Shown: positions 1,793-63,824, counted from the stretch's first letter. The stretch is 64,000 nt of DNA from an uncultured Planctomycetales bacterium (GCA_964489065.1 CAZAXH010000001.1:85106-149105); one strand, 5' to 3'. The notes: generated by a model from the sequence alone, not told the origin. Numbers and translations are program-made.

Positions 1793-1807
1793 AACGCTCC
1801 GGCCGGA

Positions 1808-2797: not shown

Positions 2798-2817
2798 TCC
2801 TTCATAAAATAAACGCG

Positions 2818-3801: not shown

Positions 3802-3849
3802 TCAAAGGACCCATTCGCATTTCTAGTTTACACTCCCTTAGGTCGTGTA
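3800..3849 (+). repeat. Intergenic repeat family, copy A1 (truncated: AATCAAAGG leader fused directly to the 3' hairpin module)
   Basis: aatcaaaggacccATTCGCATTTCTAGTTTACACTCCCTTAGGTCGTGTA. The imperfect palindrome GTTTACAC-N11-GTGTAAAC is shared with copies at 3881-3960, 36861-37030 and 38901-39075. Confidence 0.8.
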
Positions 3850-3880
3850 TTAAAAACCCGCATCCTTCAGCTCGTTCGCA

Positions 3881-3960
3881 TGGCTCACTCGCCTCAGGAT
3901 CAATTCGCATTTCTAGTTTACACTCCCTTAGGTCGTGTAAACTAAATGCTCATTGAATAA
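3881..3960 (+). repeat. Intergenic repeat family, copy A2 (middle plus 3' modules); overlaps the 3' end of the 3942..4511 CDS
   Basis: tggctcactcgcctcaggatcaattcgcatttctagtttacactcccttaggtcgtgtaaactaaatgctcattgaataa. Near-identical to the 3' halves of copies B and C. Confidence 0.8.
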
Positions 3961-4511: not shown

Positions 4512-4634
4512 TCATGCGTGTTCAAGACCTGAACATATTATTAATAATATTACTTATTGTCAAGGGGTATTCTTGTTATGTTCCCCTTACTTTCAAATAT
4601 TATTCCAAAATTTTAAAGCATTGGGATATAACAA

Positions 4635-7114: not shown

Positions 7115-7126
7115 CTCTTCTTCTCC

Positions 7127-15035: not shown

Positions 15036-15108
15036 TCCACCCCATTAAATCCGGACATAAAGAAATTAAACGTCCGGTTTCAATTTAAGAAAATCTGCAA
15101 AAATCACA

Positions 15109-15804: not shown

Positions 15805-15866
15805 GGCTTTACGTCATACCCCGCGGCACGCCCGGCCCCCTGCGGCCCGGCTTCCCAACGAGGGTT

Positions 15867-22900: not shown

Positions 22901-23636
22901 CCACGGACAACGGGCCGGCATGCATCACGGAAATCCAAAACGCCTCCAGGGTCTGCCCGGAAAACATCCGGCCACTCGCGTCGGCAATCGTGCCGGAAAT
23001 CATAACCGGAATCCGGCGGCCGGCCCTTTCAAAGGCCCCCTCAATCGCGTAAAGGGCCGCTTTACAATTTAACGTGTCAAAAATCGTTTCAATCAAAAGG
23101 AAGTCCACTCCGCCATCCATAAGCCCGCGGACCTGCTCGGCGTACGCCGCGACCAGTTGGTCAAACGTGACCGCCCGGGAGCCAGGGTCATTCACATCCG
23201 TGGACATGGAAGCGGTCCGGTTCGTCGGGCCGATCGCCCCGGCCACAAAACGGGGCTGACTGGGATTTTGCCGCGTCATAGCCTCAGCGGCCCTGCGGGC
23301 AATCCTGGCGGACGCGATGTTAAATTCATACGCCTTCCCCTGCAATTGATAATCGGCCAGGCTGATCGCGTTGGCGCCGAAAGTATTCGTCTCAATGATA
23401 TCCGCTCCGGCGTCAAGATACGCACGGTGGATTTCTTCAATAATCTGCGGCTGGGTCAGCGAAAGGACATCCCCATTCCGTTTTAAATCCACAGGATGAT
23501 CCGCAAATATATCACCCCGCACCGCCTTCTCATCCAAATTATATTCCTGCACCATGGTGCCCATGGCCCCGTCTAGAATAAGAATCCTTTCTGCGAGGAG
23601 CTTAATAATCGGATGGGATAAACCGGCTGGCCGCAT
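19938..23636 (-). CDS. metH: Cobalamin-dependent methionine synthase
   Basis: 1232 aa. Hcy-binding, pterin-binding, B12-binding ([10 protein letters not shown]) and AdoMet-activation modules in canonical order. Confidence 0.95.
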
Positions 23637-39622: not shown

Positions 39623-41770
39623 TTAAAACACGGGCGTCATAATACGGCTCATTGTTCGATGAACAATAAAAGTCCCTCCATTTTGAAAAACGACCTCCCC
39701 CAAGGCACGCAACTGATCAGAACGCAGCGCCGGATAGGCTTCGCGTTCCTTGTCGCCCACAAAAATATAATCCACCATATATTTCTCAAACATCCTGGCA
39801 GACAATAAGGAAAAAGGTTCTTCATACATGCTCTTCACTTCCTCTATGCGGGGAGCCGGAATATCATACGACCCCCTCCACAGCCATTCATGCACCGGCC
39901 ATCCGACCACAGTGGGAAGCCCCGTGAACGCGGAAACCCGGCTGAAGTCGGAATAACTCGTCCCCACGGCCTCCAATATGACCGGTTGTCCGAAGACTTG
40001 GGCATTCAGCCATAATATAGCGGCGTAATCTTCCGGATATTTTTCTTTCAACCAATGGAGTCCGTTAAGCCCTTTAAAATTTTTAAATCCATACCGGTCC
40101 CGGTAACCAAAATAAGGATAGATCAAAAGCAGGCATAGGATCACGGAAATCCCGGTCGTTACGGCCGCCTGAATCCCTTCCCGAACCCTGTTGGCGGGGA
40201 TAAAATCTTTGAGCCAGATAAAACCCGACACCCAGCCCGTCGCGACTCCCATAAAAATAAAGCCCTCCAGGGTAAATTTAAACATCGTGTTCGCCCGGGG
40301 GTGTTCGGGATAAATATCCTTCACATAAATCACTTCCGGGATAATAATTAAAACCCAGGCCGCTATAATAAGCGTCAGGAGAAAGCCAAGGACACCCTGC
40401 TTTTTTCTCCGCACGGCACTGGCCACGCCCAAAAGAGCCCGATTCTGATGATCCGCGACCAAAAACGCGATCACGCTGAGAGCCCCTAACCCGCCCCATA
40501 CAACCAGCAAACGCCAGAAATCCGAACTCTCCTCCACCCATCTGACCCCACTGGATATTGAACGAAAATGTATCCACCAAAAGGACGAAACCCCGGCCGC
40601 CGCCGTCCCAATAAGCAGGATAGACGCGCACACATGCCCGAAACGGGACGGATAGAACATAACCAAAGTCATGCCGCATAAAAACAACAAAAGCGCGTAC
40701 ACTCCCCCGGACCAGGCGCTCGTCATAAAACAAACTCCCAACATCATGCCCGCCATCAAGGCCCTGGCATAAATTTTGCCCACCCGCTCGGAAACGAGAA
40801 CCGCATGATACCACAAAAAAACACATAACAGCAAACTGATCACCAAAGGAAAATTCCAGACATGGGCGTGCAGGTCACCAACGATTAATGAATAAGCCGG
40901 AAATTCATGGATAGTTTGCGGTATAAACCGGGTGGCGTCCGGGTACCAATAACCTTTCCAGCCGTGATTTTTGATTCCGTACCAAATCGTATGCGTGTTC
41001 CCGGCAAAGGCAACCAAAGAAACCGACACCAGGCCACCCCATAGCAACGGTTTTCTTGTGGCCTCCGTCTCAGTGCTTTTACAGATCAGATTCAAGACCA
41101 GACTGAACGTTTCCGCCATAAAAAGACCCATAATAAGCCCCAGCAGTAAATTATAACTATACGGCAACTCCAGGGACCAGTACCTGGTCATAACAGCACC
41201 CAGGAAATGGCCGAACGTATAATAATTCATAGTCTCCCCGGCAAACCACATATCCAAGACAGGGAAGGTCGGCGCACGCAGATAAGATGCGATAAGACCG
41301 ACATCCATGAATTTCTCCAAATCATTAATATCCGGCCCAAAACACCGGGCGACACCGAGAAATAAAAATCCGAAGGTGAATATAATCTCTTCCGCCACCA
41401 GCCATTTCCAACGCTCCTGCAAGAACAGGACGATTTCATCTTTGTTAAAATGAAAAACCCCCATGCTTACCACTGCAACACAGAAGAAGACACCAAGCAA
41501 TCCTCCCTGATTGTTGACGGGAAAACCCCAATGGGCCAACACCCATACCGGCATGGCCAACACCAGCCATATCAGCAGCCGGCCGAAAGCCCAGCCTGCG
41601 TCATAAAGCGTATTGCGGAGCCGGACAATCAGGACCGGCATCGCGAAAAGCTGCAGAAGCGACGTCATGAACCACGCTAAAATAATCAAACCAATATCTT
41701 TCATGCTTCTATGGCCCTTCCCTCTCCAACGGCCGCGCAGCCGCCCGCCCTGTATTCCTTCCCGGAGCAA
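39623..41770 (-). CDS. Large polytopic membrane protein (15+ TM helices), putative GT-C-fold glycosyltransferase
   Basis: 715 aa. Highly hydrophobic N-terminal two-thirds with a soluble C-terminal approximately 150 aa. Located in a cluster with DPM1-like GT2 and other GT-C-like genes. Confidence 0.5.
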   Translation of the reverse strand: MLREGIQGGRLRGRWRGKGHRSMKDIGLIILAWFMTSLLQLFAMPVLIVRLRNTLYDAGWAFGRLLIWLVLAMPVWVLAHWGFPVNNQGGLLGVFFCVAVVSMGVFHFNKDEIVLFLQERWKWLVAEEIIFTFGFLFLGVARCFGPDINDLEKFMDVGLIASYLRAPTFPVLDMWFAGETMNYYTFGHFLGAVMTRYWSLELPYSYNLLLGLIMGLFMAETFSLVLNLICKSTETEATRKPLLWGGLVSVSLVAFAGNTHTIWYGIKNHGWKGYWYPDATRFIPQTIHEFPAYSLIVGDLHAHVWNFPLVISLLLCVFLWYHAVLVSERVGKIYARALMAGMMLGVCFMTSAWSGGVYALLLFLCGMTLVMFYPSRFGHVCASILLIGTAAAGVSSFWWIHFRSISSGVRWVEESSDFWRLLVVWGGLGALSVIAFLVADHQNRALLGVASAVRRKKQGVLGFLLTLIIAAWVLIIIPEVIYVKDIYPEHPRANTMFKFTLEGFIFMGVATGWVSGFIWLKDFIPANRVREGIQAAVTTGISVILCLLLIYPYFGYRDRYGFKNFKGLNGLHWLKEKYPEDYAAILWLNAQVFGQPVILEAVGTSYSDFSRVSAFTGLPTVVGWPVHEWLWRGSYDIPAPRIEEVKSMYEEPFSLLSARMFEKYMVDYIFVGDKEREAYPALRSDQLRALGEVVFQNGGTFIVHRTMSRIMTPVF

Positions 41771-47742: not shown

Positions 47743-48465
47743 CTAAGCAATCCTCCTGTAATATTCCCGCTTAAGTTTGAAAAGCCCCCCCAAAAGGCCC
47801 CAGACAATCCCCGGGAGGCGTGCCGGGCGGAAAATAGATGTTCCTCCAACCGGGCGGGGGTAATGACGGACAGGGATTTCCCTGACTTTATAACCGGACA
47901 AATGCGCCCTCAGGATAAATTCTGACATAACGCAATATTTCATATATTTCAACCGGGGGAGAACCCGTTCGATGACATCCCGCCGGATAAGCTTAAACCC
48001 GGAATCAATGTCTTTCATCCAAAGCCCGAACAGCGCCCCTATCAAATAGTTATACGTGAACGACAAAACCCTCCGATGGACGGGATCTTTCCGGGGCGTT
48101 TTGCACCCGCTTATAATATCACATGCGGAAACCCCGTTCAGCAATTTATGAATATCCTCGGGGTCATGCTGGCCGTCCGAATCGCTGAACAGCACCCACG
48201 GAGTACGGGCCAAAGACAAGGCGTCTTTAAACGCCCGCGTATATCCCTTCCTCTCGGGGGAACTGACAAGCGTAAACGGAATTTCCTTTTGCAGTTGAAG
48301 AAGGATATCCTTTGTGCCGTCGTCACTCCCGTCTTCCACGATCAGGAAGGTGACCGGAACCCCGCAGTGCATCACCGCGGCATAAAAATCCCGGACAACC
48401 TTTTCAATAATCCGGGATTCATTATAAACGGGCATGATCAAAGTCAGGGGTTCATCCATCATCAC
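47743..48465 (-). CDS. Family-2 glycosyltransferase, polyprenol-phosphate sugar synthase type (DPM1/ArnC-like)
   Basis: 240 aa. LIMPVYNES...IVEDGSDDGT...DSDGQHDP motifs. Confidence 0.75.
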   Translation of the reverse strand: MMMDEPLTLIMPVYNESRIIEKVVRDFYAAVMHCGVPVTFLIVEDGSDDGTKDILLQLQKEIPFTLVSSPERKGYTRAFKDALSLARTPWVLFSDSDGQHDPEDIHKLLNGVSACDIISGCKTPRKDPVHRRVLSFTYNYLIGALFGLWMKDIDSGFKLIRRDVIERVLPRLKYMKYCVMSEFILRAHLSGYKVREIPVRHYPRPVGGTSIFRPARLPGIVWGLLGGLFKLKREYYRRIA

Positions 48466-48498
48466 AAGTCTCGCGGTGTTTCAACCGGCAACATCATT

Positions 48499-49755
48499 TT
48501 ATCGTCCAGGCGCAGCGCCATACTCCCAGTCTAAATACGGCACAATAAACCGCGCCAGGGCCTCTCCGATAAACGTATAGCCTTCCGGTTTATAATGACA
48601 GTGGTCGTACAACATGTCCTGCCCATCCCGCGCGTATTTATCCCTTAACGCCGGAAGCAGGTCCAGATAAGGAAGCCGGCGCTTTCGCATTTCCGTGACA
48701 AATCGCTGCTGGGGTTCATTTCTTAATATTTGCGACGTAATTTGCGGCCTGACCGGAAAAAACACGAAAGCCAATTTAAAATCGGCGTCACGGCTCACCG
48801 TCCTCATCATATCAACGATCGGCAACATTTTCTGCCAGGCCCCCTCATCCCAGGCGTAGCCCCAATCCTGGAACGCGTTATGAATCTCCCAGTTAAACCC
48901 TTCTTCCGTATCCCACTCATGAGTTGCTTTCATGGGATGCGTTCCGGCGAAACGCTCTCTGGCCGCTTTGCGGTCATCGGGGAGCTGTTGTTCCCACTGA
49001 TATTCCTTATATAAAGCCCGCAACTTATCGATCTTGACCAGCACCAGTCTGGCCAAACGGCTGAACGTCAGCCATTCCGGAAGCCGGACAACTTTAAGCA
49101 AAGGGGATTCATGCGCATCATTAAGATACAGCCCCACCAGCACGATATCCGGTTTAACCGAAAGACCTGTTTCCATCAGCAGGGCAAACTCATTCTGCAG
49201 ATCAACGGCCCCGATCCCCGCGTTAATCACTTCCAGGCGGCGGCCGGGGAACATCCGCCGCAAGGCCTGCTCCATCACCGCCGGATAGGTCTGATCCTGC
49301 GAAACAAAATCCCCGAATGTGATGCTGTCTCCCAGGACAAGGATGCGGAGTTCCCCCGGCTGTTTGGGGCCAATGTCCCGGTGCCGGAAGCCCAGCGAAT
49401 TCGTCCGGATTTCGATGTCGGTCTGGGATAAAGCGTGATGACGCACCAGACCATGGGCATTTTTCTTCAAACGGGTCCCGGTATGCGAATACAAAAAAAA
49501 TCCCCCGGGGAGTTTCTCGCTGACAATCGTGCCGTCGTCACGGACACTGAAATCACCGTATTCCGTAAAATCGTTTTCGCCGGGTTTATTTAAATTTTCA
49601 ATGACTAGGCTCGGCGGCACCTTTACAAAAAGGCGGACACTCGCCTCCAAAATGGCCAATGTCGCCAGCACGCTTAAAACCACAAGCCCCCCAAGAACAT
49701 ACCATTGATCCCGTTTCCCGCCCACCCTCTCTCCGGATTCCTTATCCAGAATCAT
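48499..49755 (-). CDS. Membrane-anchored SGNH/GDSL-family hydrolase (putative glycan O-acyl esterase or acyltransferase)
   Basis: 418 aa. N-terminal TM plus ILVLGDSITFGD (SGNH block I). Confidence 0.55.
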   Translation of the reverse strand: MILDKESGERVGGKRDQWYVLGGLVVLSVLATLAILEASVRLFVKVPPSLVIENLNKPGENDFTEYGDFSVRDDGTIVSEKLPGGFFLYSHTGTRLKKNAHGLVRHHALSQTDIEIRTNSLGFRHRDIGPKQPGELRILVLGDSITFGDFVSQDQTYPAVMEQALRRMFPGRRLEVINAGIGAVDLQNEFALLMETGLSVKPDIVLVGLYLNDAHESPLLKVVRLPEWLTFSRLARLVLVKIDKLRALYKEYQWEQQLPDDRKAARERFAGTHPMKATHEWDTEEGFNWEIHNAFQDWGYAWDEGAWQKMLPIVDMMRTVSRDADFKLAFVFFPVRPQITSQILRNEPQQRFVTEMRKRRLPYLDLLPALRDKYARDGQDMLYDHCHYKPEGYTFIGEALARFIVPYLDWEYGAAPGR

Positions 49756-50464
49756 ACCCCGCCTCCCTGACTTCCCTGCCGATATAATTCACCTTGTACC
49801 ACCACATAAAAATCAGGTCAACAATGGTAGAGACAAAATATAAACGCGTCAAAGAAAATTTAGAGCGGCCATAGGGCCGGAGCCGGTGATGAACCGGCAT
49901 GACTTTATAAGAATATCCCGCAAGTTTAAAAAGGACCGGTATAAAACGGTGCACGCCCCGCATGGGCAGCAGGCTCTGAAGGGCCTGACGTTTCATCACT
50001 TTGAGGCCACATCCCGTGTCGCGCACATCATCACCCAAAACAAGCTTCCGGAAAAAGAAAGCAATGCGAGAAATGATAATTTTACTCCGGGGATCGCACC
50101 TCTTTTCCCGGGAACCAAAGACCGCGTCAACGCGCTCCAGTTCCGGCAGCATCGTGACAGCATCGCGGAAATCATTCTGCCCGTCCCCATCCATCATCAC
50201 GATGACCTCCCCCCGGGCAAAAGCCAATCCGGCAAAAAGCGCGGCGTCTTTTCCCCGGTTTCTGGAAAACGATAAAATTTTAAGGGAACTTAATGTTTGC
50301 GCATAACGGGTGAGTGCCTCTCTCGTCCCGTCCCGGCTGCCGTCATCCACAGCGATAATTTCACAGTCAAACGCCTTGTCCTGAACAACAGACTGAACTT
50401 CATCCAGGACGCAGGCCACATTATCCTGTTCATCATAAAACGGGATAATCAGCGATATTTTCAT
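49742..50464 (-). CDS. Family-2 glycosyltransferase, polyprenol-phosphate sugar synthase type (second copy)
   Basis: 240 aa. SLIIPFYDEQDN...IAVDDGSRDGT...DGDGQNDF motifs. 14-nt overlap with the upstream gene. Confidence 0.75.
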   Translation of the reverse strand: MKISLIIPFYDEQDNVACVLDEVQSVVQDKAFDCEIIAVDDGSRDGTREALTRYAQTLSSLKILSFSRNRGKDAALFAGLAFARGEVIVMMDGDGQNDFRDAVTMLPELERVDAVFGSREKRCDPRSKIIISRIAFFFRKLVLGDDVRDTGCGLKVMKRQALQSLLPMRGVHRFIPVLFKLAGYSYKVMPVHHRLRPYGRSKFSLTRLYFVSTIVDLIFMWWYKVNYIGREVREAGYDSG

Positions 50465-50545
50465 AACATATCCCTTTTAAACCTTTTTATAAAAAAAATC
50501 TGAACAGCCAACTGTGTCGCCCCCGGGAAAGTAAACATTTAAAAA

Positions 50546-51445
50546 TTAAAAATAAATAACGGCCGCGCAGACAATAAGCCAAAGCAAAACCGTTAATTTC
50601 AGGACATGGTCTTTCCAGAGTATCCGGACAGGATCTCCGCCCAGCAAACGCATATCCACCAGATAAATATAGCGGAAAATCCCGTAATAGGCCAAAGGAA
50701 CCGTGTAAATCAGGGCATGGGTATGGAATTTCGCGACCGTTTCCTTATCCATGACATACAACGCGTAACTCATAATTAAAGATGAAGCGATGATGGAGAT
50801 CATCCGGTCAATATAATACCGTGTATAGACATCTCCCCCCCCGTTATTTTGAGGCCCGAAATCAAGGTCATATTTACGCTTATTAAACCCGATAAACAAC
50901 GCCAACAGGACAGAACATATCAGGATCCAGCTGGATAAACTGACTTCGCTGACAATTCCACCGGCGGCGATCCGAAGGTAATAAAAAACGCCTATACAAA
51001 ACACATCAATAATAACGATTCGTTTAAGATATCGGGAATAAATCAGATTCAGGGAAAAATAAACCAGCAGTATTCCCGCGGCCCGGAGGTTTAAAAAATA
51101 CGCGCAGGACAATGAAACCGCTGAAAGGGCCAGGATCATAATGACGGCCTGACGGCCCGTCATTAAACCGGCGGCTAAAGGCCGGGTGCATTTATCCGGG
51201 TGCTTCTTGTCTTCCTCCAGGTCATACAGGTCATTGAACAGATACACCGCGCTGGAAGCTAGGGCAAAGGCAACACTCATGCCTAAAGTTTTTAGAAATG
51301 CCTGGGGCTCAAAAAGTTTACTTCCGAAAATAAGCGGCAAAAATATAAAAGCGCTTTTCACCCACTGATGCGGGCGAAGCGCTTTGAAAACAATTTGAGC
51401 CGAAAGTGTGAATTCCGGTTTAAGAGACAACTGTATTCTCATCAA
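50546..51445 (-). CDS. UbiA-family prenyltransferase, decaprenyl-phosphate phosphoribosyltransferase-like
   Basis: 299 aa. ALRPHQWVKSAFIFLPLIFG start and NDLYDLEEDKKHP Asp-rich motif, 8-9 TM helices. Confidence 0.65.
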   Translation of the reverse strand: MMRIQLSLKPEFTLSAQIVFKALRPHQWVKSAFIFLPLIFGSKLFEPQAFLKTLGMSVAFALASSAVYLFNDLYDLEEDKKHPDKCTRPLAAGLMTGRQAVIMILALSAVSLSCAYFLNLRAAGILLVYFSLNLIYSRYLKRIVIIDVFCIGVFYYLRIAAGGIVSEVSLSSWILICSVLLALFIGFNKRKYDLDFGPQNNGGGDVYTRYYIDRMISIIASSLIMSYALYVMDKETVAKFHTHALIYTVPLAYYGIFRYIYLVDMRLLGGDPVRILWKDHVLKLTVLLWLIVCAAVIYF

Positions 51446-51633: not shown

Positions 51634-52374
51634 TCAACGCACCATTGTCTTATAAATAACATCGCCTTCTTTAACGCAATGGTCAACTTTTAATCCGACT
51701 AACTGTCCTTTCTTAACAGATTTAACATCCAGGCTCTCAACCTGAAGCGAGTTCACTTTCTGTTTCAATTCCGTTCCTCTGCCCTTAATAATAATATTGT
51801 CCCCCAGGAATAAGGCGGCCCCGTCAATCTTCACCACGCAGACCATTATCTTGTTAAAATAATGGGTTATATTCCCCACCCTCACCATCTTTGTCTGGCC
51901 ATTCCCAAGATTTCTCCCCACCGCATTCTTCCCAGATCCCCTGGTATTTTCGCATCCCGGCTGGCCTGATCGCACGCCGGCCTGCTTCCCTTTATTAATC
52001 CCCCCAGAGGAGCGGACACTCCCGGCGGGCCTTCGTTTAGCCACCCTATTCCCGGTCCGTTTCTCCAGAGCCCTTGCGACAACGCAGGCTGGTTTCTGGG
52101 TTTTAGAAAATTCTTTTCGCGCCGCCCCGGAAGCAACACCCACGGTCTTAACAGGCCGGGGTGCCCGAAGTTTTAAGCCCGTTCTTTTCTTTTTCTGCAC
52201 CGGCCTGGAAGATGTCCGGCGGAGAGGGGCTTGGGGGCGGGAAGATGCCTTCCGGACGGGAGGCCTTCTTCCCGGAACCTTTTTTCGGGAAGAAGGTTTT
52301 ATGATTTTCTCAAAGAATGAAAGGATATTGTCGAATAGAAACCCCATAATATAAAAAAAGGCACATATTGACAA
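51634..52374 (-). CDS. Hypothetical protein; highly basic, disordered N-terminal region with an approximately 84-aa beta-rich C-terminal domain (possibly a stand-alone small protein starting at 51888)
   Basis: The N-terminal 160 aa are Arg/Lys/Pro/Ser-rich. The C-terminus MVRVGNITHYFNKIMVCVVKIDGAALFLGDNIIIKGRG...GDVIYK resembles translation-factor domain-II-like barrels. Confidence 0.3.
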   Translation of the reverse strand: MSICAFFYIMGFLFDNILSFFEKIIKPSSRKKVPGRRPPVRKASSRPQAPLRRTSSRPVQKKKRTGLKLRAPRPVKTVGVASGAARKEFSKTQKPACVVARALEKRTGNRVAKRRPAGSVRSSGGINKGKQAGVRSGQPGCENTRGSGKNAVGRNLGNGQTKMVRVGNITHYFNKIMVCVVKIDGAALFLGDNIIIKGRGTELKQKVNSLQVESLDVKSVKKGQLVGLKVDHCVKEGDVIYKTMVR

Positions 52375-52413: not shown

Positions 52414-52740
52414 CTATAATGTTATTTTCTCTGCAATACTGGCAATCAGCGGCAAGTTAAAAATCTTCCCCCGCAAGGCGGCAACGATACCAGAAAAGGA
52501 GATCAGCCCGAGGCAAAAAAATCCGATCCTCAAAACGGCAGGGAATATTATACTCAAAATAAACACCGCCACTTCACCGATAAATATAACCAAGCCCTGT
52601 TTCGCATGAGACAGGACAAACTCATTGTCTTTTTTGAATATAAGCGGAATGATACAAAAAATGGATAAATAGGCCAACAATGCGAAAACCTTACCCTCTA
52701 CAATCTGGTCATCTCCGGCGTCAGTCGTCTTCTTAGGCAT
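52414..52740 (-). CDS. DUF4870-family small membrane protein
   Basis: 108 aa. LLAYLSIFCIIPLIF...HAKQGL signature. Confidence 0.5.
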   Translation of the reverse strand: MPKKTTDAGDDQIVEGKVFALLAYLSIFCIIPLIFKKDNEFVLSHAKQGLVIFIGEVAVFILSIIFPAVLRIGFFCLGLISFSGIVAALRGKIFNLPLIASIAEKITL

Positions 52741-53911
52741 TCAAGGGGACCTCCAGGAGCGAATTGATGTCCCCAAAAGAATTCCGTTCCTGGCGGGGGT
52801 TGGCCGGATCCTCTTTCCACCGGCCATCCACAATAAACTGATATTTATACATTCCCGGCTGCAGAGGAACCTTAACGACCCAGCGGTCTCCTTCCAAGCG
52901 CATCCGGCAATTCTCATCCAAAGACCAATCATTGAAACTCCCCGTCACATAAACCGAACGGGCATCCGGCGCGGACAGAGTAAATGTCATGGGACACATT
53001 TCATTCACATGGGCCTTAATGGCATCCTGCATCCTTTCGGACAGCGCCTGGGAGAATTCTTCCGCCGGTTGTTCAGGAGCAACCCGAGGAGCTTGTTCCG
53101 TTTTGGCTGACTGCGACTCCGCAACGGCCGGCTCCGGCCGGGCCTCGGCTTTCGGCTCCTCAACGGCGATGATCTCCTTAGCCAAGCTAAAATAATCTTT
53201 AGCCCCCCGGCAATATTTGTCATAAACCGTCACGGTTTGCCCCATGACAGCGGATTCCTTCAGTTTAACATTAATATGCACGATGGTATCAAACAGGACA
53301 TCTTGGAATTTTTCCCGGATCGTGGACATCATCGAGAAAGAGTGGCGCAGACGGGAATCAAACATCGTAATTAATATTTTATAGCCGACCTGATGATTCA
53401 GGCGGTCCCGAATCAAATGGATAATATCCAGCAGATGATCCACCCCCTGCATCGAGAACCGGCTGGTTTCAACCGGGATAATGACCTCATCCGAGGCCCG
53501 GATGGAGTTGACGGTCAGGATACCCAAACTCGGAGGGCAGTCAATAATAATATAATCATAATCATTTTTAATCTCATTGATAATTTCGAGGATCTTCGTT
53601 TCGCGGCCGATCTCGTCGGCGAGTTCCTGTTCAAGAGTTCCGACGAGGATGCTGGACGGTACGATATCAAAATTCGCATCAACCTTTTTAATAATATTAC
53701 GGATTTTCAGTTTGCGGGGCGTTAATTTCGATATCACGTTATAAAGGCTGTCCTGATCCTCAAAATTCAATCCTAAGGAAGCGTGGGACTGCGGGTCCAA
53801 GTCAATCAGAAGAGTCCTCTTGCCATTATGGCTTAACGCCGAGGAAAGGTTAATCGCCGTTGTGGTTTTGCCACACCCTCCTTTTTGATTCGCGACAGAT
53901 ATAATTCTCAT
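52733..53911 (-). CDS. ParA/MinD-family P-loop ATPase fused to a C-terminal AMPK-beta-type glycogen-binding domain (CBM48-like)
   Basis: 392 aa. Deviant Walker A MRIISVANQKGGCGKTTTAINL. Pro/Ala/Glu-rich linker. C-terminus VYVTGSFNDWSLDE...GMYKYQFIVDGRWKEDPANP...GDINSLLEV matches the VYLSGSFNNWS...YKFFVDGQW..DP glycogen-binding domain consensus. Confidence 0.75.
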   Translation of the reverse strand: MRIISVANQKGGCGKTTTAINLSSALSHNGKRTLLIDLDPQSHASLGLNFEDQDSLYNVISKLTPRKLKIRNIIKKVDANFDIVPSSILVGTLEQELADEIGRETKILEIINEIKNDYDYIIIDCPPSLGILTVNSIRASDEVIIPVETSRFSMQGVDHLLDIIHLIRDRLNHQVGYKILITMFDSRLRHSFSMMSTIREKFQDVLFDTIVHINVKLKESAVMGQTVTVYDKYCRGAKDYFSLAKEIIAVEEPKAEARPEPAVAESQSAKTEQAPRVAPEQPAEEFSQALSERMQDAIKAHVNEMCPMTFTLSAPDARSVYVTGSFNDWSLDENCRMRLEGDRWVVKVPLQPGMYKYQFIVDGRWKEDPANPRQERNSFGDINSLLEVPLNA

Positions 53912-53929
53912 TTTACACCAGCCTCCTTT

Positions 53930-54514
53930 TTAGCTAGAAAAGCAAATTTCATCTATAAGAATAATTCCTCTTTGTTTTTCGGCGTTCCATGATTCGAGGA
54001 TGAAAGACACCTCGGTGATGCCCGTCCAGTCAGTGATCTGGTTGAAATCATCAAACGGGACGGCAACGCGTTTCCAGTCCAACTTTATTCCATCGATAAA
54101 AACGGACGAAGACTCATTAAGACGGTTGCGGATTTCCACCCGGACGATGCCGGGGTAGCCATCCTCCAAACCGCGCACCGCGAATTGCAAAGAGCGGTAT
54201 TTCCCGGCGTTAATCTGAGGCGTCGTCAAGGAAAACGTTTTAACGGGCGGATAGGGATACGTCAAATCATAGTTGATCCGCAACGGCCCCTTATTCAAAG
54301 AATAGATAACCTTATTATCAAAAAAATCTTTTTTATGCGCGAGGAAGGCGGTGAACCCGTAAAAAGCGCTTGCGAAAATAACCAAGGTAATGACAATATT
54401 AATTAACAACCAAGCATTAAATTGCTTCTTTTTTTCTTTCTCATGCTTGCTTTTTTTCCCTATATAAACCTGCGCCAGATGGTCATAAATCTCATCTCTG
54501 GTCATTGGAAACAC
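53930..54514 (-). CDS. Hypothetical single-pass membrane protein with extracytoplasmic domain (first gene of the ParA-fusion operon)
   Basis: 194 aa. Lys-rich N-terminus and TM helix LLINIVITLVIFASAFYGF. Confidence 0.4.
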   Translation of the reverse strand: MFPMTRDEIYDHLAQVYIGKKSKHEKEKKKQFNAWLLINIVITLVIFASAFYGFTAFLAHKKDFFDNKVIYSLNKGPLRINYDLTYPYPPVKTFSLTTPQINAGKYRSLQFAVRGLEDGYPGIVRVEIRNRLNESSSVFIDGIKLDWKRVAVPFDDFNQITDWTGITEVSFILESWNAEKQRGIILIDEICFSS

Positions 54515-54798
54515 CTCGATTAAAATAATTTAAACCGCGGAGCAGACGCCAACCCACGATGCTTTTTATTGATTTAATTTTATAATAACAAATAAATACT
54601 GTTTTCAAAACACAATTTTACTTTTTTTAAATAAATTAATGTCTTTTTCCCGTCGGGAATAAACGCGGCTTACAACAATCGGCGAAAATCCTCCCTAATA
54701 AAGCCGTTCTTCCCGCCCCGCGCCGGAGAAAAGACAAAAAAAGCCCCCGCTTTTTTAAGCGGGGGCTTGATGTTCAAAACAGAAACGATGCGAGTTAA

Positions 54799-56178
54799 TT
54801 AAAAATTAACAATTGCGTTTAACATCAACTGATAAGCCCGGCGGTCATTCGCGGTCGTAAACGTCGTCCCCGGGAAAAACAGCCCATAGCTGGCGCCGAT
54901 TTTCACATCTTCGGTGTAGTCATAGGCCAAGTCAAGGGTGAGTTCATCTCCCAACTTCTCGTCGGTATCCGTGGCTGTGGTGATTGATGTGCCGTCCGGC
55001 TGAAGAAGAGTCAAACTGGTCAACCCGTTGCCGTCGGTATCCGCTAACGGCTTGTCCAGCCACAGCCCGTTCCATTCGATGCCCGCGGTTAAATCTTCCA
55101 GCGGGACGATGGATCCGCGCACTTTCACAACATGGACATCTGTCTGGCTAAACAGTGTATTGTAGATTTTTCCGTTGGACTGGTCTTCGAACATCGGATC
55201 CCAGGCCTCGTAATCATCGGTCAAATCTGACGGGTCGCTGTCACCGGACACATACGTGTACGCCGTCGTCAAAACCGGGCTCCAGCTCTTGGTGCTCTCA
55301 AACGGAACCATGTAATTGGCGATCAACTGGGCCCCGGCCGCCTTGCGGTCAGCGCTCTGGGCCGTCCCATAATTTTTATTACCGAACTGATAAGCGACTT
55401 CCGCGGACAGAGAAAGGCTATCCATAATATTCGCCGCGAGGTGCACACCCGGCATATAAACGGTATCCGCTTTCACCCCCAAGGCGTCGTCTTTGACACT
55501 CTGGTCAATCTTGGCCCAGAAATAGGGTTCCAGGACCGTCCCGCTATTATCGCCCAATTCCCAGTTGGCGTTCATCCCAAAGAGGTCAATATCATCGTCC
55601 TGGCTTCCAACGCCCAGAAGATTGTTGGAGGCGACTTTGGCAGCCACAATGTCAATCGTCAGCGGGCTGTAATCAAAGATCATCCGAACGGCATCCGCCG
55701 CGTTTCTCTTTGTCATATCGCCGGCTACGCCTCTTAAGCTGCCGGAAAGCTCGTCGCTCATCCCCGCAGAGGAAATAACGAACGCGTTTCCATAAACAAA
55801 ATTCTGCCGCCCGACAACGACCGTTAACGGAGAATACAGCATCTCTCTTAAGGTCACGTAGGCCAAGTTCAGGTCGACGTCATTGTCGCCATAGGTATCT
55901 TCGCCGTCTTCACCCCAAACCCGCTCGTTAATCAGCCCCACCGTGGCGCTGACATTATCCGTCAGGTCAGAATCAATTCTGAGCCGGGTCTGTGTGAGCA
56001 GCATGTTCTGATAAAACTGCTTGTCATTCGTGACGACCCCCTGAGCCCCCAAGTCAAACTGGTCTCTCACCATCCACGTAGAATCGACATCCCCGCTGAC
56101 TTTGATATTCTGGACGCTAGCGGCAGCCGGTAAAGCCATCAAAGCCACGGCAAGCAATGTTAACCCTATTTTTTTCAT
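54799..56178 (-). CDS. Outer-membrane beta-barrel porin (putative)
   Basis: 459 aa. Signal peptide MKKIGLTLLAVALMALPAAAS, alternating amphipathic beta-strand pattern rich in Gly/Asp/Tyr, C-terminal ...AIVNF (terminal Phe). Confidence 0.55.
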   Translation of the reverse strand: MKKIGLTLLAVALMALPAAASVQNIKVSGDVDSTWMVRDQFDLGAQGVVTNDKQFYQNMLLTQTRLRIDSDLTDNVSATVGLINERVWGEDGEDTYGDNDVDLNLAYVTLREMLYSPLTVVVGRQNFVYGNAFVISSAGMSDELSGSLRGVAGDMTKRNAADAVRMIFDYSPLTIDIVAAKVASNNLLGVGSQDDDIDLFGMNANWELGDNSGTVLEPYFWAKIDQSVKDDALGVKADTVYMPGVHLAANIMDSLSLSAEVAYQFGNKNYGTAQSADRKAAGAQLIANYMVPFESTKSWSPVLTTAYTYVSGDSDPSDLTDDYEAWDPMFEDQSNGKIYNTLFSQTDVHVVKVRGSIVPLEDLTAGIEWNGLWLDKPLADTDGNGLTSLTLLQPDGTSITTATDTDEKLGDELTLDLAYDYTEDVKIGASYGLFFPGTTFTTANDRRAYQLMLNAIVNF

Positions 56179-56710: not shown

Positions 56711-58492
56711 TCACAGCGACTGCAAGCGCTCCAGCTCCCGTTTAACACCCTGAACTTCAGGGTGCGCGGTAAAGAACGCCCTATATTCTCTAATAATATT
56801 CTCCCGCAGATTCCCATTGCCGGGGTTAATCTCTTCAGCGTTCCGAAAGGCCGTCAATGCATCTTCAACCCGCCCTCTATCAAAATAAAGTTTCCCCAAA
56901 TAAAAAAAAGCGTTGAAATGCCCTGGTTCTGCTGCAACGGTCTGCTGTAAATATTGCTCAGCCAAACAGACTTGTCCGGAATAATAAAAAATTCTCCCCA
57001 AGCCAAATAACGCAGGGGCATGCCGGGGGCGGAGCTTTAATGCTTTCTGATAATACGTGACAGCCTGAACAACCCGCTGGGCACGAACCGCCGCCCTCCC
57101 CTCCTCTCCCGGGTTGGCCAAGCCCCCTTGATGATTAAACTGCACAGACTTTAAAACCAGGAACAAATCATTTTGCCCGACCAAAGCGTCCGCATACTTA
57201 CTAAGGACCAGTGCCTGAATTAACCCGGGTTGCCCCTCCCAATGCGTTTCCACCTGATGCCGCCACAGAGTTGTTCCGTCTTTCCAGACAACGACCTGTC
57301 TGCGGGTCTGCACCGACAAGAACAAAATCCCGCAGACGACCCCGGTCACAAGCAGGCCCTGATAAATCTTTTTTCCCCGGCTCAATTGGTACCCGAAGGA
57401 AATCACCCCAGCCGTCCAACAGCAAAATCCCAGGCTGGGTAAATACATAAACCGGTCAGCCACGACATGAGAATCAGCCCCGTAATCAAATCGGAAAAGA
57501 AAGAAAGCCGATGCCACATACCAAAAGAAAGCCAACAAAAACAGCCGGGACCGGCGCAACACAACCAACGCGGCAACCAGCAAAACAAAGAACAGCGCCC
57601 CCGAAAAAAGGGATGCGTTATGGATTGTCACCGGAAATGGGGGAGCATAGAAGACCACAAAAAAATCCGGATAAAAAAATTTCTTTAGATGAAACGTCAG
57701 GCACCAAATCCAGGTCAGCCAAGACTCCGGGAACGATACCGGGGCGCGCCGCATATGCAAGGCATACGTCACCCACACGATCGGGAACAACACGGCGCCG
57801 CATATAAATTTCTCCAGCCAGGCATACACAGTGAATCTTCTTTCAAAATACCAATCAAGGAGCAATAAAATAAACGGCAAACTTAACGCCATCGGCTTGG
57901 ACAAAACGCTTAAAAAGCCGCCAACAAGCGCTAACGCCCACCAAATCCGGGCGCGGGGATGCACGCCGCGCTCTCCGCCTAAGGAAGGCCGGATCAACCC
58001 CGCCCGGGACAGATACGTCACATAGCAACAAACCGCCACAAGATAAAACATGGAATATAACACATCTTTACGTTCCGTCACCCAAGCGACCGACTCGACA
58101 TGCATCGGATGCACGCCAAAAATCAACCCCGCCAGCAGCCCGGCGGCCAGGGACAAGCCAAAGGCCCGGGCGAGCCAAACAACCAGAGCCACGTTCATAA
58201 GATGCAACAAGAGATTATGCCGATGAAACACAAAAGGATGAAATCCCCACCGGGCATGCTCCCAGGCGAAGGAAAGAAGTGATAAAGGAATATAGGTCTT
58301 ATTGACGGTCGTCGAAAACATTAACCGCACATGCGGCGCGTCCAAAGAACGTATAAACGGATTCTGCAGAAGATGCACATCATCGTCATAATTAACAAAT
58401 CCGTTTTGCAGGGTTGGGGCCAACGCCCAGGCGACCCAGAAAAGGACCAGGCAAAAACAAAGGGCATTTTTCTTGTTGAATGCTGGCACCAT
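56711..58492 (-). CDS. TMTC/PMT-2-like membrane protein with C-terminal TPR repeats (putative O-glycosyl/mannosyltransferase)
   Basis: 593 aa. N-terminus FVNYDDDVHLLQNPFIRS (DE-type loop motif), about 10 TM helices, C-terminal TPR-like AYYQKALKL...GLGRIFYYSGQ...AFFYLGKLYF repeats. Confidence 0.55.
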   Translation of the reverse strand: MVPAFNKKNALCFCLVLFWVAWALAPTLQNGFVNYDDDVHLLQNPFIRSLDAPHVRLMFSTTVNKTYIPLSLLSFAWEHARWGFHPFVFHRHNLLLHLMNVALVVWLARAFGLSLAAGLLAGLIFGVHPMHVESVAWVTERKDVLYSMFYLVAVCCYVTYLSRAGLIRPSLGGERGVHPRARIWWALALVGGFLSVLSKPMALSLPFILLLLDWYFERRFTVYAWLEKFICGAVLFPIVWVTYALHMRRAPVSFPESWLTWIWCLTFHLKKFFYPDFFVVFYAPPFPVTIHNASLFSGALFFVLLVAALVVLRRSRLFLLAFFWYVASAFFLFRFDYGADSHVVADRFMYLPSLGFCCWTAGVISFGYQLSRGKKIYQGLLVTGVVCGILFLSVQTRRQVVVWKDGTTLWRHQVETHWEGQPGLIQALVLSKYADALVGQNDLFLVLKSVQFNHQGGLANPGEEGRAAVRAQRVVQAVTYYQKALKLRPRHAPALFGLGRIFYYSGQVCLAEQYLQQTVAAEPGHFNAFFYLGKLYFDRGRVEDALTAFRNAEEINPGNGNLRENIIREYRAFFTAHPEVQGVKRELERLQSL

Positions 58493-61034: not shown

Positions 61035-63824
61035 TTAACGTGTTGTCTTTTTCTTGGCAACTTTTTTCTGAGCTTTCTTAGCGGGCTTTTTGCATTTACA
61101 CTCTCCGCATAAGGCCGCCTGCGCCGCCGCCAGCCTGGCAATAGGGACGCGGAACGGAGAACAACTCACGTAATTCATTCCGACCTTCTGGCAGAACGCG
61201 ATGGATTTCGGGTCGCCGCCATGTTCGCCACAGATACCAATCTTCAACTCCGGCCGAACCGACCGCCCCCGCTCCACACCGGTGGCGATAAGCTGCCCAA
61301 CCCCTTCTTCATCGATACTGCTAAACGGATCTTCCGGCAGGATGTCTGTTTCCAGGTAATCCGGCAGAAAACCGCCCACATCATCCCGGGAAAACCCGAA
61401 ACTCATCTGGGTCAGGTCGTTGGTCCCAAAAGAGAAGAATTCCGCAATTCCCGCGATCTTATCCGCGGTCAGGGCGGCCCGGGGGATTTCGATCATCGTT
61501 CCGAACATATATTTGACCTGCTTCATATTATACTTTTCGCAGACCTCCGCATGCACCCTCTGGACAATTTCTTTCTGGCTCTCAAGTTCCTTCACCGAAC
61601 ACACCACCGGCACCATGATTTCCGGAAAAACTTTCTTCCCTTCCTTGGCGCATTCCACGGACGCTTCGAGAATGGCCCGGATCTGCATCTCGGAAACCTC
61701 CGGATACGTGATCCCCAGACGGACACCACGGTGCCCCATCATAGGGTTGGATTCCCGCAAACCCGAAGCCCGTTTTTCCAGATCCTCCAGGGAAACGCCG
61801 AGGCTTTCCGCAAGTTGCTTAAAAGCTTCTTCATTATGCGGAACGAATTCGTGCAAAGGAGGATCCAGCAACCGGATCGTGACCGGGTACCCGTCCATCG
61901 CCGAGAGTGTCCCCTTAATGTCTTTCTTCATATAAGGGAACAGTTCATCCAAGGCTTTCCGGCGCTCTTCGACATCTTTAGATACGATCATTTTTCTGAG
62001 CTTAAACAACGGCTGCTCGGAATTCTGCCCATAAAACATATGTTCCGTCCGAAAGAGGCCGATTCCTTCCGCCCCAAAAGCGCGCGCCTTAGCCGCGTCA
62101 TCCGGAGTGTCAGCGTTAGTACGGATCTTCAAGGTGCGGATTTGATCGCAGACCTTAAGGAAATCATTTAACAGCTGATTTTCCGCGGCGGCGTCGATCA
62201 TCGGCAGTTGGCCTTCATAAACCTTGCCTTTGGTTCCATTGAGGGTGATCCAATCCCCTTCCCGCAGCGTCCTGGACCCGATTTTCATGAGTTTATTGCC
62301 AATATCCGTTTCGATTTCAGAACAGCCGACGATACAGCATTTTCCCCAGCCGCGCGCGACAAGAGCGGCGTGAGAAGTCATCCCGCCCCGTGCCGTCAGA
62401 ATGGCTTCTGCGGCCCGCATCCCTTCAACGTCCTCCGGATTGGTCTCTTCCCGGACAAGGATCACGCGTTTGCCGTTTTTGCGCCAGGCGACCGCGTCCT
62501 CGGCGGTAAAAACAATCTGCCCGGCCGCCCCGCCCGGGCCAGCCGGAAGGCCGGACCCCAGCAAGACCGCTGTTTTTTCTTTAGCCGGATCAATGATCGG
62601 GTGCAGCAGTTCATCCAGTTGGGCAGGGGTAACCCGGCTCACAGCCTCCTGCGGCCCTATCAGTTTTTCTTTAAGCATTTCCGTCGCCATCTTTAACGCA
62701 GCCGGACCGTTCCTTTTCCCCACCCGGCACTGCAGCATGTACAGGACTCCCCCTTCAATCGTGAATTCGATGTCCTGCATATCATGATAATGCTTTTCCA
62801 GCCGGTTACGGATATCCACCAGCTGTTTGTAAATATCCGGTGACCGCTGCTCAAGCGTTTCCAGATTCTTGTTATATTCGCTCTGGGAATACGTGTTGAT
62901 CGGGGCCGGAGTCCGGATGCCCGCCACGACGTCCTCCCCCTGGGCGTTGACGAGGAACTCCCCGTAAAAATTATTGTCCCCGTTGCCCGGGTTACGGGTG
63001 AAGGCGACCCCGGTCGCGGAGTCATCCCCCATGTTCCCGAACGCCATGCTCTGGACATTAACCGCCGTGCCCCATTCATGCGGGATCCCCTCGATAATAC
63101 GGTAGGAGATAGCCCGTTTCCCGTTCCACGAGGCGAAAACAGCGCCGATGCCGCCCCATAACTGATCCATGGCGTTCTCCGGGAATTCTTTCCCCAGGAC
63201 TTCCTTAATTTTGACTTTATAATCCGCGCAAATTTTCTTCAGAACTTCAGCGGTCAGGTCGGAATCATTCTTGATCCCCTGTTCTTTTTTATAGCGGTCC
63301 AAAATCTGCTCCAACTGGCGGCGGATGCCCTTGCCTTCCTCCGGCTCTATTCCGGCGGCCTTTTCCATAACCACGTCCGCGTACATGGTTAACAAACGGC
63401 GGTACGCGTCGTAAACAAAACGTTCATTCTTGGTTTTCGCGACCAGCCCCGGGATGGTTTTAGGCGTGAGCCCGACGTTAAGAACCGTTTCCATCATCCC
63501 CGGCATCGATTTCCTGGCGCCGGAACGGACAGACACCAAAAGCGGGTTCTTGGGGTCCCCGAATTTCTTGCCGGTCAGCTTTTCGACTTTCTGAAGAGCC
63601 GCGACGACCTCGGCTTTAAGTTCAGGCGGGTATTTTTTCTTGTTCGCGTAATAATACGTGCAGACTTCCGTAGTAATTGTGAACCCCGGCGGAACCGGAA
63701 GACGCAGGTCTTTGTGCCCGGCCATTTCCGCCAGGTTCGCCCCTTTACCACCCAAGAGGTTTTTCATTTCCGCTTTTCCGTCCGCTTTCCCTCCTCCGAA
63801 GGAATAGACATACTTTTTAGCCAT
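61035..63824 (-). CDS. ppdK: Pyruvate, phosphate dikinase
   Basis: 929 aa. N-terminal MAKKYVYSFGGGKADGKAEMKNLLGGKGANLAEM, catalytic His region (GGMTSHAALVARGWG), C-terminal PEP-utilizing TIM barrel. Confidence 0.95.
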   Translation of the reverse strand: MAKKYVYSFGGGKADGKAEMKNLLGGKGANLAEMAGHKDLRLPVPPGFTITTEVCTYYYANKKKYPPELKAEVVAALQKVEKLTGKKFGDPKNPLLVSVRSGARKSMPGMMETVLNVGLTPKTIPGLVAKTKNERFVYDAYRRLLTMYADVVMEKAAGIEPEEGKGIRRQLEQILDRYKKEQGIKNDSDLTAEVLKKICADYKVKIKEVLGKEFPENAMDQLWGGIGAVFASWNGKRAISYRIIEGIPHEWGTAVNVQSMAFGNMGDDSATGVAFTRNPGNGDNNFYGEFLVNAQGEDVVAGIRTPAPINTYSQSEYNKNLETLEQRSPDIYKQLVDIRNRLEKHYHDMQDIEFTIEGGVLYMLQCRVGKRNGPAALKMATEMLKEKLIGPQEAVSRVTPAQLDELLHPIIDPAKEKTAVLLGSGLPAGPGGAAGQIVFTAEDAVAWRKNGKRVILVREETNPEDVEGMRAAEAILTARGGMTSHAALVARGWGKCCIVGCSEIETDIGNKLMKIGSRTLREGDWITLNGTKGKVYEGQLPMIDAAAENQLLNDFLKVCDQIRTLKIRTNADTPDDAAKARAFGAEGIGLFRTEHMFYGQNSEQPLFKLRKMIVSKDVEERRKALDELFPYMKKDIKGTLSAMDGYPVTIRLLDPPLHEFVPHNEEAFKQLAESLGVSLEDLEKRASGLRESNPMMGHRGVRLGITYPEVSEMQIRAILEASVECAKEGKKVFPEIMVPVVCSVKELESQKEIVQRVHAEVCEKYNMKQVKYMFGTMIEIPRAALTADKIAGIAEFFSFGTNDLTQMSFGFSRDDVGGFLPDYLETDILPEDPFSSIDEEGVGQLIATGVERGRSVRPELKIGICGEHGGDPKSIAFCQKVGMNYVSCSPFRVPIARLAAAQAALCGECKCKKPAKKAQKKVAKKKTTR

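Follow-up and report, generated by a model that had tools for sequence, protein, structure and literature searches.

A widespread ParA-like ATPase with a built-in CBM48 glycogen-binding module, a candidate system for positioning glycogen granules

The gene studied here lies in a 64,000-nucleotide stretch of DNA from an uncultured Planctomycetales bacterium (GCA_964489065.1 CAZAXH010000001.1:85106-149105; the whole stretch is called the window below, and positions count from its first letter). It encodes a 392-amino-acid (aa) protein in which a ParA/MinD-type ATPase domain is joined by an acidic linker to a C-terminal carbohydrate-binding module (CBM) of family 48, the type that binds glycogen in the beta subunit of AMP-activated protein kinase (AMPK). 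An initial annotation made from the sequence alone had described this protein as a positioning ATPase fused to a glycogen-binding domain and placed it in a three-gene membrane-protein operon; the three open reading frames (ORFs) that it called are all present on the minus strand as called, and so are the deviant Walker A motif KGGCGKTT and the C-terminal motifs that it quoted. ParA/MinD positioning ATPases are a known class, and what is new here is a polysaccharide-binding cargo module fused to one of them, together with the sets of partners encoded beside it. The fusion had been thought to be undescribed, and our literature search likewise turned up no paper on a ParA-CBM48 protein or on a system linking ParA to glycogen.

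Both domains are recognized by curated Pfam profiles. AAA_31 covers residues 1-175 (2.4e-55, 187.7 bits against a cut-off of 27) and CbiA also matches the ATPase (1.1e-17, 64.6 bits against 25.4), while the C-terminus is matched by AMPK1_CBM (PF16561, residues 307-388; 2.9e-15, 56.7 bits against 26.8) and by CBM_48 (PF02922; 2.4e-5, 25.0 bits against 22.4); since the curated thresholds are passed, the AAA_31 and PF16561/CBM_48 assignments stand far above chance. Among solved structures, the ATPase domain is closest to chromosomal ParA/Soj proteins (8ray_B, 7.6e-49; Thermus thermophilus Soj, 3.4e-38; Helicobacter pylori Soj, HpSoj, 8e-36) and shares only distant similarity with McdA, MinD and ParF. 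The residues K10, K15, D37, D39 and D125 of the deviant Walker A, A' and B motifs do not vary among 70 distant relatives, which are 32-50% identical to P0126, the first sequence of the alignment. None of the NCBIfam equivalogs ParA_partition, RepA, SopA, MinD and BcsQ reaches its cut-off on the fusion, ParA_partition (NF041546) scoring 116.4 bits against 180 and RepA, SopA and MinD falling far below. The linker is Pro/Ala/Glu-rich, as first described, and at approximately 52 aa somewhat shorter than the 60 or so residues originally estimated; across the family its length ranges from about 5 to 300 aa.

In a phmmer search of PDB sequences, the C-terminal 99 residues match the glycogen-binding domains of AMPK beta1 and beta2 (1z0n, 9e-10) and, more weakly, the CBM48 modules of pullulanases, branching enzymes and the starch phosphatases SEX4 and LSF1. 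An AlphaFold2 (AF2) model of residues 296-392 has a predicted local distance difference test (pLDDT) score of 90.3, and its 39 best Foldseek matches in the PDB are all AMPK beta CBMs (1z0m, 1z0n, 4yee and 4yef on top; for isolated AMPK CBM chains, target-normalised TM scores of 0.8-0.9 and root-mean-square deviations of 1.2-1.6 Å at ~30% identity), followed by SNF1 beta and SEX4. Profile and fold agree with the AMPK-beta/CBM48 identity first proposed, and the binding-site residues largely do so too. A generic beta-sandwich, considered as an alternative for this domain, is ruled out by the profile, the PDB sequence search and the fold search. The 392-aa protein has no transmembrane (TM) or other hydrophobic segment and no signal peptide, nor was an amphipathic membrane-targeting helix found in it; for a protein lacking a TM segment and a signal peptide, the only plausible alpha-glucan ligand would be cytoplasmic glycogen.

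The glycogen-contact residues of AMPK beta1 are reportedly W100, K126, W133, L146 and N150 (Polekhina et al. 2005). At these positions the window protein aligns Trp, Gln, Trp, Phe and Asn, with a Lys at position 124, and these residues, together with G147, are at least 95% conserved in the 120-member close family. Among 130 fusions representing clusters of 50% identity, W100 is Trp in all 130, position 126 is Lys or Arg in 122, W133 is Trp in 126, G147 is Gly in 125 and position 150 is Asn or Asp in 120, the Q126/K124 variant of the window being a minority type (6/130). Judged from these alignments, the ligand-contact positions are under selection and the fusion family as a whole retains a sugar-binding site; binding by the CBM of the window protein itself is less certain, because it is of the minority Q126/K124 type.

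Table 1. Features of the fusion gene and its surroundings in the window (positions from the first letter of the window).
Feature	Position	Strand	Basis
Fusion gene, 392-aa ParA-CBM48 protein	52733..53911 (stop codon included)	-	ORF; Pfam AAA_31, AMPK1_CBM, CBM_48
ParA/MinD-type ATPase domain, residues 1-250	53162..53911	-	Soj/ParA structure matches; invariant catalytic residues
Walker A KGGCGKTT, residues 10-17	53861..53884	-	Sequence
Acidic Pro/Ala/Glu-rich linker, residues 251-302	53006..53161	-	pI (isoelectric point) 4.7; unconserved in 120-member alignment
AMPK-beta-type CBM48 glycogen-binding module, residues 303-392	52736..53005	-	PF16561; AF2 and Foldseek
191-aa bitopic membrane protein	53930..54505 (start corrected from 54514)	-	AF2; Foldseek CBM11
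108-aa polytopic membrane protein, weakly DUF4870/MamF_MmsF-like	52414..52740	-	Hydrophobic segments; synteny
246-aa basic-tail beta-barrel protein, likely start ATG 52347	51634..52374	-	Synteny; charge
Intrinsic terminator after the porin gene	54741..54768	-	12-bp stem, 8 GC pairs, T-run
Alginate_exp-type outer-membrane porin	54799..56178	-	Pfam Alginate_exp 2.7e-13

The fusion proved to be common, which settles the question of frequency raised by the initial annotation, and it is a genuine, conserved one. The best 120 matches among 5.8 billion proteins (P0001 and 119 relatives) are all full length and all carry PF16561; the named members belong to Candidatus Omnitrophota and are annotated 'AAA family ATPase' or 'chromosome partitioning protein'. 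When every sequence in a library of 50%-identity cluster representatives was searched, the best 150 matches listed comprised 130 ParA proteins with one C-terminal CBM, 14 with ParA only (several of them fragments) and six CBM-repeat proteins. A profile built from 70 distant fusions again returned PF16561 in 120 of 120 proteins, under names such as Planctomycetota, Sedimentisphaerales, Phycisphaerales and 'PVC group', with one cluster member from Nitrospirota. Finally, a scan of GTDB (one genome per species) with the patterns NQKGGCGK and LLIDxDPQGH yielded at least 592 species stretches confirmed as relatives (592/600 among the matches listed), from 10 or more phyla. Of these loci, the best 80 belong to Planctomycetota (including Ca. 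Kuenenia stuttgartiensis), Omnitrophota, Thermodesulfobacteriota/Desulfobacterota, Myxococcota, Gemmatimonadales, Nitrospirota, Rokuibacteriota, Zixiibacteriota, Eisenbacteria, Ca. Auribacter and Spirochaetaceae. The family is thus old, widespread and very large, and it sits in databases under generic names, unstudied. An assembly chimera is ruled out, because independent contigs carry an identical protein (P0001, 100%) and over 100 full-length relatives and because both domains are in one ORF in 82 of the 89 loci whose neighbourhoods we read with 6-10 kb flanks. The six CBM-repeat proteins (P0121, 1812 aa; P0134; P0191; P0200; P0238; P0247) carry 5-18 tandem CBM48-like modules closely related to that of the fusion and have no ATPase domain.

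The clade has a signature of its own. KGGCGKT together with DPQxH is found in 116/130 fusion representatives and 76/82 loci, and the Cys in Walker A and the DPQxH motif are near-invariant, whereas canonical Soj has Val and DPQGN; a canonical-looking ParA (KGGVGKT/DPQGN, 41% identity) is the last of the 150 representatives listed. By sequence, then, the fusion clade is distinct from canonical Soj. Two Nitrospirota members of the clade have no CBM (L060:6001-6903 and L070:6001-6840), and three from Desulfobacterota (L046, L058 and L076) carry long acidic tails in its place. Because the Nitrospirota members retain both downstream partner genes described below, the CBM seems to have been added to an older ParA-like system of three genes.

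The fusion gene is flanked in the window by closely spaced genes on the same strand (Table 1). That of the 108-aa membrane protein overlaps it by 8 nucleotides (ATGCCTAA, 52733..52740), exactly as first reported. The membrane-protein operon that had been proposed survives with a revised membership: the 191-aa, fusion, 108-aa and basic-tail genes probably form a single operon of four genes rather than three, because a terminator (54768..54741) lies on its upstream side and a perfect sigma-70-like promoter follows 51634, ahead of a UbiA gene. The porin is a syntenic Omnitrophota neighbour and, from the same sequence features, a separate transcription unit. The order porin, 191-aa protein, fusion, 107-108-aa membrane protein and basic-tail beta-barrel protein recurs in Omnitrophota, with the four neighbours present in 16, 19, 14 and 18 loci, respectively, and the 191-aa gene co-oriented and immediately upstream of the fusion in all 19 of its loci. 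The surrounding Omnitrophota block is syntenic as well, from the genes for pyruvate phosphate dikinase (PPDK), a sigma factor and a phosphoribosyltransferase (PRTase) to those for S15, PNPase, FtsK and RodZ.

The 108-aa protein, 40-67% identical in the syntenic loci, is a membrane protein as predicted, but the proposed DUF4870 assignment is weak, at 14.8 bits where the cut-off is 25 (19.7 bits for the ortholog in L002). Precomputed matches to PF09685 (MamF_MmsF) exist for its orthologs in L001 (weak), L002, L005 and L006; no other mam-like genes turned up, a magnetosome link not having been specifically searched for. The basic-tail protein combines a K/R-rich, disordered N-terminus of variable length (pI 12, charge about +34) with a conserved C-terminal barrel of 78 aa that resembles EF-Tu domain 2 (55-63% identity in five loci; GTP_EFTU_D2 at 7e-5 on the L037 ortholog). 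Its gene is the last of the operon in 18 Omnitrophota loci, and the annotation of L001 calls the barrel alone.

The upstream 191-aa protein has the single TM segment noted initially, but its start moves from 54514 to 54505, because the GTG at 54514 falls within the Shine-Dalgarno sequence GAGGTG of the ATG at 54505 and its homologs are uniformly ~191 aa long. The family numbers 479 homologs, almost all of 191 aa, with named members exclusively from Omnitrophota and without a Pfam domain. The first 17 residues are almost invariant (M1, D4, I6, Y7, H9, L10, A11, V13, Y14, G16, K17) and are followed by a Lys-rich stretch and then by the TM segment. In the AF2 model (pLDDT 84.8), a long helix spans residues 3-63 and a beta-sandwich is predicted at pLDDT >90; Foldseek matches this sandwich to CBM11 (1v0a, 1.2e-8; 6r3m, 1.9e-8) and then to CBM28, CBM30, CBM8 and CBM4, while the CBM_11 profile match is weak (0.0022, 18.5 bits against a cut-off of 27). 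The modelled sandwich thus has a CBM11-like fold, which implies neither membership of that family nor a particular ligand. The positive-inside rule (seven Lys precede the TM segment and three follow it) places the sandwich outside the cytoplasm, which leaves the invariant N-terminal peptide as the only part able to reach the ATPase. The suggestion that this protein is the cognate adaptor therefore narrows to its 17-residue peptide, which may serve as the contact to the ATPase in the way that ParA partners typically offer one. The product of the fourth gene, with its basic tail, is an equally plausible partner of the ATPase.

These membrane-protein neighbours are specific to the Omnitrophota branch, and other phyla pair the fusion with different partners. 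Outside Omnitrophota, 26 loci from several phyla have, directly downstream of the fusion and co-oriented with it, a gene for a protein of 260-720 aa that is weakly ParA/MinD-like (CbiA 3.6e-5) and has no Walker A motif; the copies in L008 (11101-12030) and L009 (12094-12927) match each other at 1e-5. On this sequence evidence it looks like a pseudo-ATPase partner. Next downstream in 12 loci follows an ORF of 190-240 aa with a faint match to NucS_C, which is PD-(D/E)xK-like (E = 0.036; L008:12027-12704 and L068:7052-7711), and this ORF accompanies the fusion in Myxococcota, Gemmatimonadales, Rokuibacteriota, Auribacter, Nitrospirota and Desulfobacterota. Neither the degenerate ParA-like nor the NucS-like partner was found in the window.

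The initial annotation had proposed looking for glycogen genes beside the fusion, and one family recurs there: a glycoside hydrolase family 57 (GH57) gene lies near the fusion in 8/82 loci, while other glycogen enzymes do not recur. In six loci (L062, L063, L065, L083, L086 and L088; L062 is labelled Planctomycetales and the other five Omnitrophota), a GH57 protein of ~520 aa (Pfam 3e-67) is encoded on the same strand between the porin and the 191-aa gene, giving the order porin > GH57 > membrane protein > fusion. The other two are L008 (PVC group, with a BE_C branching-enzyme domain) and L038 (Thermodesulfobacteriota). An unbiased Pfam census of the 356 ORFs lying up to 3.5 kb from 80 fusion genes matched Alginate_exp 13 times and GH57 seven times (the L008 GH57 gene, at 3.75 kb, comes in addition), which makes GH57 the commonest specific enzyme family. 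The ortholog in L065, which has the GH57-bearing arrangement, passes PF16561 at 53 bits, and that of L064 passes it as well. Omnitrophota metagenome-assembled genomes are reported to encode glycogen synthesis (PMC8542988). Two further neighbourhoods are recorded here: in L008, a DUF4912 gene (13601-14647) lies directly upstream of the GH57/BE_C gene (~14835-16415), approximately 2.5 kb downstream of the fusion, and in L007 (4917-9366, minus strand; Sedimentisphaerales) the fusion gene diverges from a Wza / Wzz-tyrosine-kinase / Wzy cluster for exopolysaccharide export.

As to the remainder of the window, 347..7963, 47743..51445 and 56711..58492 are rich in genes for cell-envelope glycans, none of them a glycogen enzyme: nucleotide-sugar epimerases/dehydratases, fusions of glycosyltransferase family 2 (GT2) with methyltransferases, a radical S-adenosylmethionine/B12 enzyme, a UbiA prenyltransferase and a tetratricopeptide repeat (TPR) protein. 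The ortholog of the last is called TPR in L002, where a separate downstream gene has a weak PMT_2 match, and the labels GT2, SGNH/GDSL-like and amine-oxidase-like for 47743..50464 come from L002 orthologs and not from the window ORFs. Pfam identifies a full-length B12-dependent methionine synthase, MetH, and a DUF2298 membrane protein at 19938..23636 and 39623..41770 (both minus strand). The 929-aa product of 61035..63824 (minus strand) is taken as PPDK from synteny with the PPDK of related loci. All three are ordinary housekeeping genes, and the PPDK, sigma-factor and PRTase block is syntenic with the related Omnitrophota contigs. No carboxysome genes are present in the window or the loci.

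The ATPase domain retains part of a known DNA-binding patch. HpSoj contacts DNA through K199, K227, K230 and K247 (PMC6393308), and the aligned residues of the window protein are F190, I213, K216 and K232. R185 provides the Arg of the 'DxR' motif and reportedly corresponds to R189 of Bacillus subtilis Soj (Hester and Lutkenhaus 2007). This residue pattern is compatible with nucleoid binding and is no proof of it.

With a likelihood that we place a little below even, we infer that the fusion is an orphan ParA-like ATPase that binds cytoplasmic glycogen through its own CBM48 and tethers, spaces or partitions glycogen granules by an ATP-driven cycle on the nucleoid or the membrane. It would be an orphan in that it acts outside any ParABS system of a chromosome or plasmid, with its cargo module built in. 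The CBM48, on its flexible acidic linker, would bind the alpha-1,4/1,6-glucan granules of glycogen; ATP binding would cause the ATPase domain to dimerize through the deviant Walker A motif and to dock on a cellular matrix, most likely the nucleoid and possibly the membrane by way of the neighbouring bitopic protein; and hydrolysis would release it from this matrix. Through repeated cycles, granules would be tethered and spread along the cell, so that they stay apart and are inherited by both daughters. The factor that stimulates or localizes the ATPase in Omnitrophota is probably co-transcribed with it, as the N-terminal peptide of the 191-aa protein or the basic tail of the beta-barrel protein; the degenerate ParA-like protein encoded immediately downstream would take its place in other phyla. 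We further propose, with slightly less conviction, that the unnamed KGGCGKT branch of ParA/MinD proteins as a whole, anammox Planctomycetota included, is a widespread ATP-driven system for positioning and partitioning glycogen granules that recognizes its cargo directly by the fused CBM48 and employs previously unseen kinds of partners, namely the CBM11-like bitopic protein in Omnitrophota and the Walker-A-less ParA-like pseudo-ATPase with the NucS-like protein elsewhere.

Several observations weigh against such a role in glycogen positioning. A ParA held permanently on its cargo is incompatible with a classical Brownian ratchet, in which the activator of the ATPase, and not the ATPase itself, sits on the cargo; it would more closely resemble a dynamic tether. 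Two of the four DNA-contact lysines of HpSoj are kept (K230 and K247), and the equivalent of K227 is Ile. Some members of the clade that lack the CBM keep the same partners, so the core machine does not need glycogen. In the subfamily of the window, the position of AMPK K126 is occupied by Gln, with a Lys two residues earlier, and the K126Q substitution reportedly abolishes glycogen binding in AMPK beta1 (Polekhina et al. 2003). The families GT5, GlgC, GT35 and GH13 are not enriched around the 80 fusion genes and no glycogen enzyme other than GH57 occurs there more than once; within the same 3.5 kb, some 40 Planctomycetota loci show no glycogen link, and no GH57 gene was found in the 64-kb window. 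Furthermore, the conserved neighbours in Omnitrophota belong to the cell envelope, with the CBM-like domain of the 191-aa protein facing away from the cytoplasm.

Four rival readings are given less weight. The CBM48 could report the state of the carbon store and tune a ParA-type switch whose output lies elsewhere (cell division, chromosome organization or the localization of another complex), glycogen or an oligosaccharide being the signal and not the cargo. The AMPK beta CBM, the closest relative of the fusion's module, has a regulatory role in AMPK, the retention of the two downstream partner genes by the CBM-less L060 and L070 indicates a glycogen-independent core function, and the linker varies from 5 to 300 aa; all three would suit a sensor. 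We nevertheless consider a sensor unlikely, as no output machinery is conserved beside the gene across phyla and the strong conservation of the sugar contacts fits simple binding equally well. It is similarly improbable that the CBM48-like domain has lost sugar binding in the subfamily of the window and now serves in protein-protein interaction. The Gln at the K126 equivalent would be explained in this way, and a structural use of such a domain is known from the plug of the type IX secretion system (NF052315, 1.2e-6; 6h3j_C), yet W100, W133, N150 and G147 are kept, L146 is replaced by Phe and the same strand carries a Lys two residues earlier, each of these at 95% or more in the subfamily, and the GH57-adjacent Omnitrophota orthologs pass PF16561, as does that of L065 with its 53 bits.

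The operon of Omnitrophota invites a different view, in which the ATPase is recruited to the inner membrane by the 191-aa and MamF/MmsF-like proteins and organizes or energizes a site of glucan handling, for example by anchoring glycogen or enzymes or by localizing a complex for polysaccharide import or export, as BcsQ does with cellulose synthase. Co-oriented and translationally coupled genes for two membrane proteins are kept in 14-19 loci, one of these proteins pairs an invariant cytoplasmic N-terminal peptide with a CBM11-like external domain, the Alginate_exp porin (13 matches) is syntenic, the BcsQ profile matches weakly (1.8e-12) and the window is rich in polysaccharide genes. However, the membrane neighbours are confined to the Omnitrophota branch while the fusion is far wider, a strong terminator separates the porin from the operon, the region is syntenic housekeeping DNA in which linkage may partly reflect simple inheritance, and the fusion has neither an amphipathic membrane-targeting helix nor a TM segment, and we give such an envelope module only a small chance. 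Least probable, and in our judgement very unlikely, is a chromosomal ParA (Soj) that has acquired an accessory domain, as is implied by the label 'chromosome partitioning protein' that JGI gives to many members. Its nearest solved structures are indeed chromosomal ParA/Soj proteins, and in some genomes the gene has ftsK and rodZ nearby, in a housekeeping region. Against this, a phmmer search with an approximate Spo0J probe and no positive control found no ParB in the 64-kb window or in the 6-10 kb flanking the gene in the 89 loci, where the neighbours are annotated as other genes, the clade has its own KGGCGKT/DPQxH signature, with the canonical-looking KGGVGKT/DPQGN protein in last place among the 150 listed, and the fusion occurs in Myxococcota and Planctomycetota, phyla that have ordinary ParABS systems.

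If glycogen positioning is indeed its function, bacteria would have in their storage polysaccharide a further class of actively positioned cargo, besides DNA, carboxysomes, chemoreceptor arrays and the division machinery. Glycogen granules are usually assumed to be placed passively, and to our knowledge the distribution of glycogen at bacterial division is essentially unstudied. The fusion would also, as far as we know, be the first ParA to recognize its cargo directly, without an adaptor, and direct recognition of cargo by ParA would pose a mechanistic question for the Brownian-ratchet model. The size of the family (hundreds of species, ten or more phyla) makes the idea directly testable, with partner peptides that the operons make identifiable; among the carriers of the fusion, Ca. 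Kuenenia grows in enrichment culture. In addition, two further uncharacterized partner families, the degenerate ParA-like and the NucS-like proteins, travel with the ATPase.

The fusion can be compared with several known systems. Like BcsQ, it is a ParA/MinD ATPase encoded with polysaccharide-related machinery and membrane partners, and the CBP_BcsQ profile matches it at 1.8e-12; this match is far weaker than those to AAA_31 and Soj, the NCBIfam BcsQ model scores 71.5 bits against a cut-off of 157.85, no bcs genes lie near the fusion and its CBM is, by sequence, of an alpha-glucan-specific and not a cellulose type. The CBM48 modules of AMPK beta, SNF1 beta and SEX4 share its fold (1.2-1.6 Å, ~30% identity) and the same sugar-contact Trp, Trp and Asn, but here the module is carried by a P-loop ATPase instead of a kinase scaffold or a phosphatase, with Gln in place of K126 and Lys at -2. 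Chromosomal ParA/Soj proteins (T. thermophilus, H. pylori and 8RAY) are the best matches to the ATPase (7.6e-49 to 9e-35), with the same catalytic motifs and a partly shared DNA-binding patch, and the fusion differs from them in having no ParB found nearby, the KGGCGKT/DPQxH signature, non-basic residues at the equivalents of HpSoj K227 and K199, and the additional linker and CBM48.

McdA/McdB and the other orphan ParA/MinD positioners (PomXYZ, MipZ, ParC and PpfA) likewise employ an ATPase away from ParB, presumably for non-DNA cytoplasmic cargo, and McdA/McdB-type systems likewise have one or more small partner genes in the same operon. Their cargo module resides on a separate adaptor, whereas here it is fused to the ATPase and the cargo would be a polysaccharide granule. 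The match to McdA structures is weak and limited to N-terminal residues 1-166 (6non/6noo, 3e-14), and the fusion retains the signature Walker A Lys that beta-type McdA is not known to have. A parallel in outcome would be with PhaM and PhaF, which tether polyhydroxybutyrate granules to the nucleoid by passive binding to DNA and granule, without an ATPase. In both cases a storage granule held on the nucleoid would be shared between the daughters, and in the fusion an ATP-driven switch would make this attachment dynamic.

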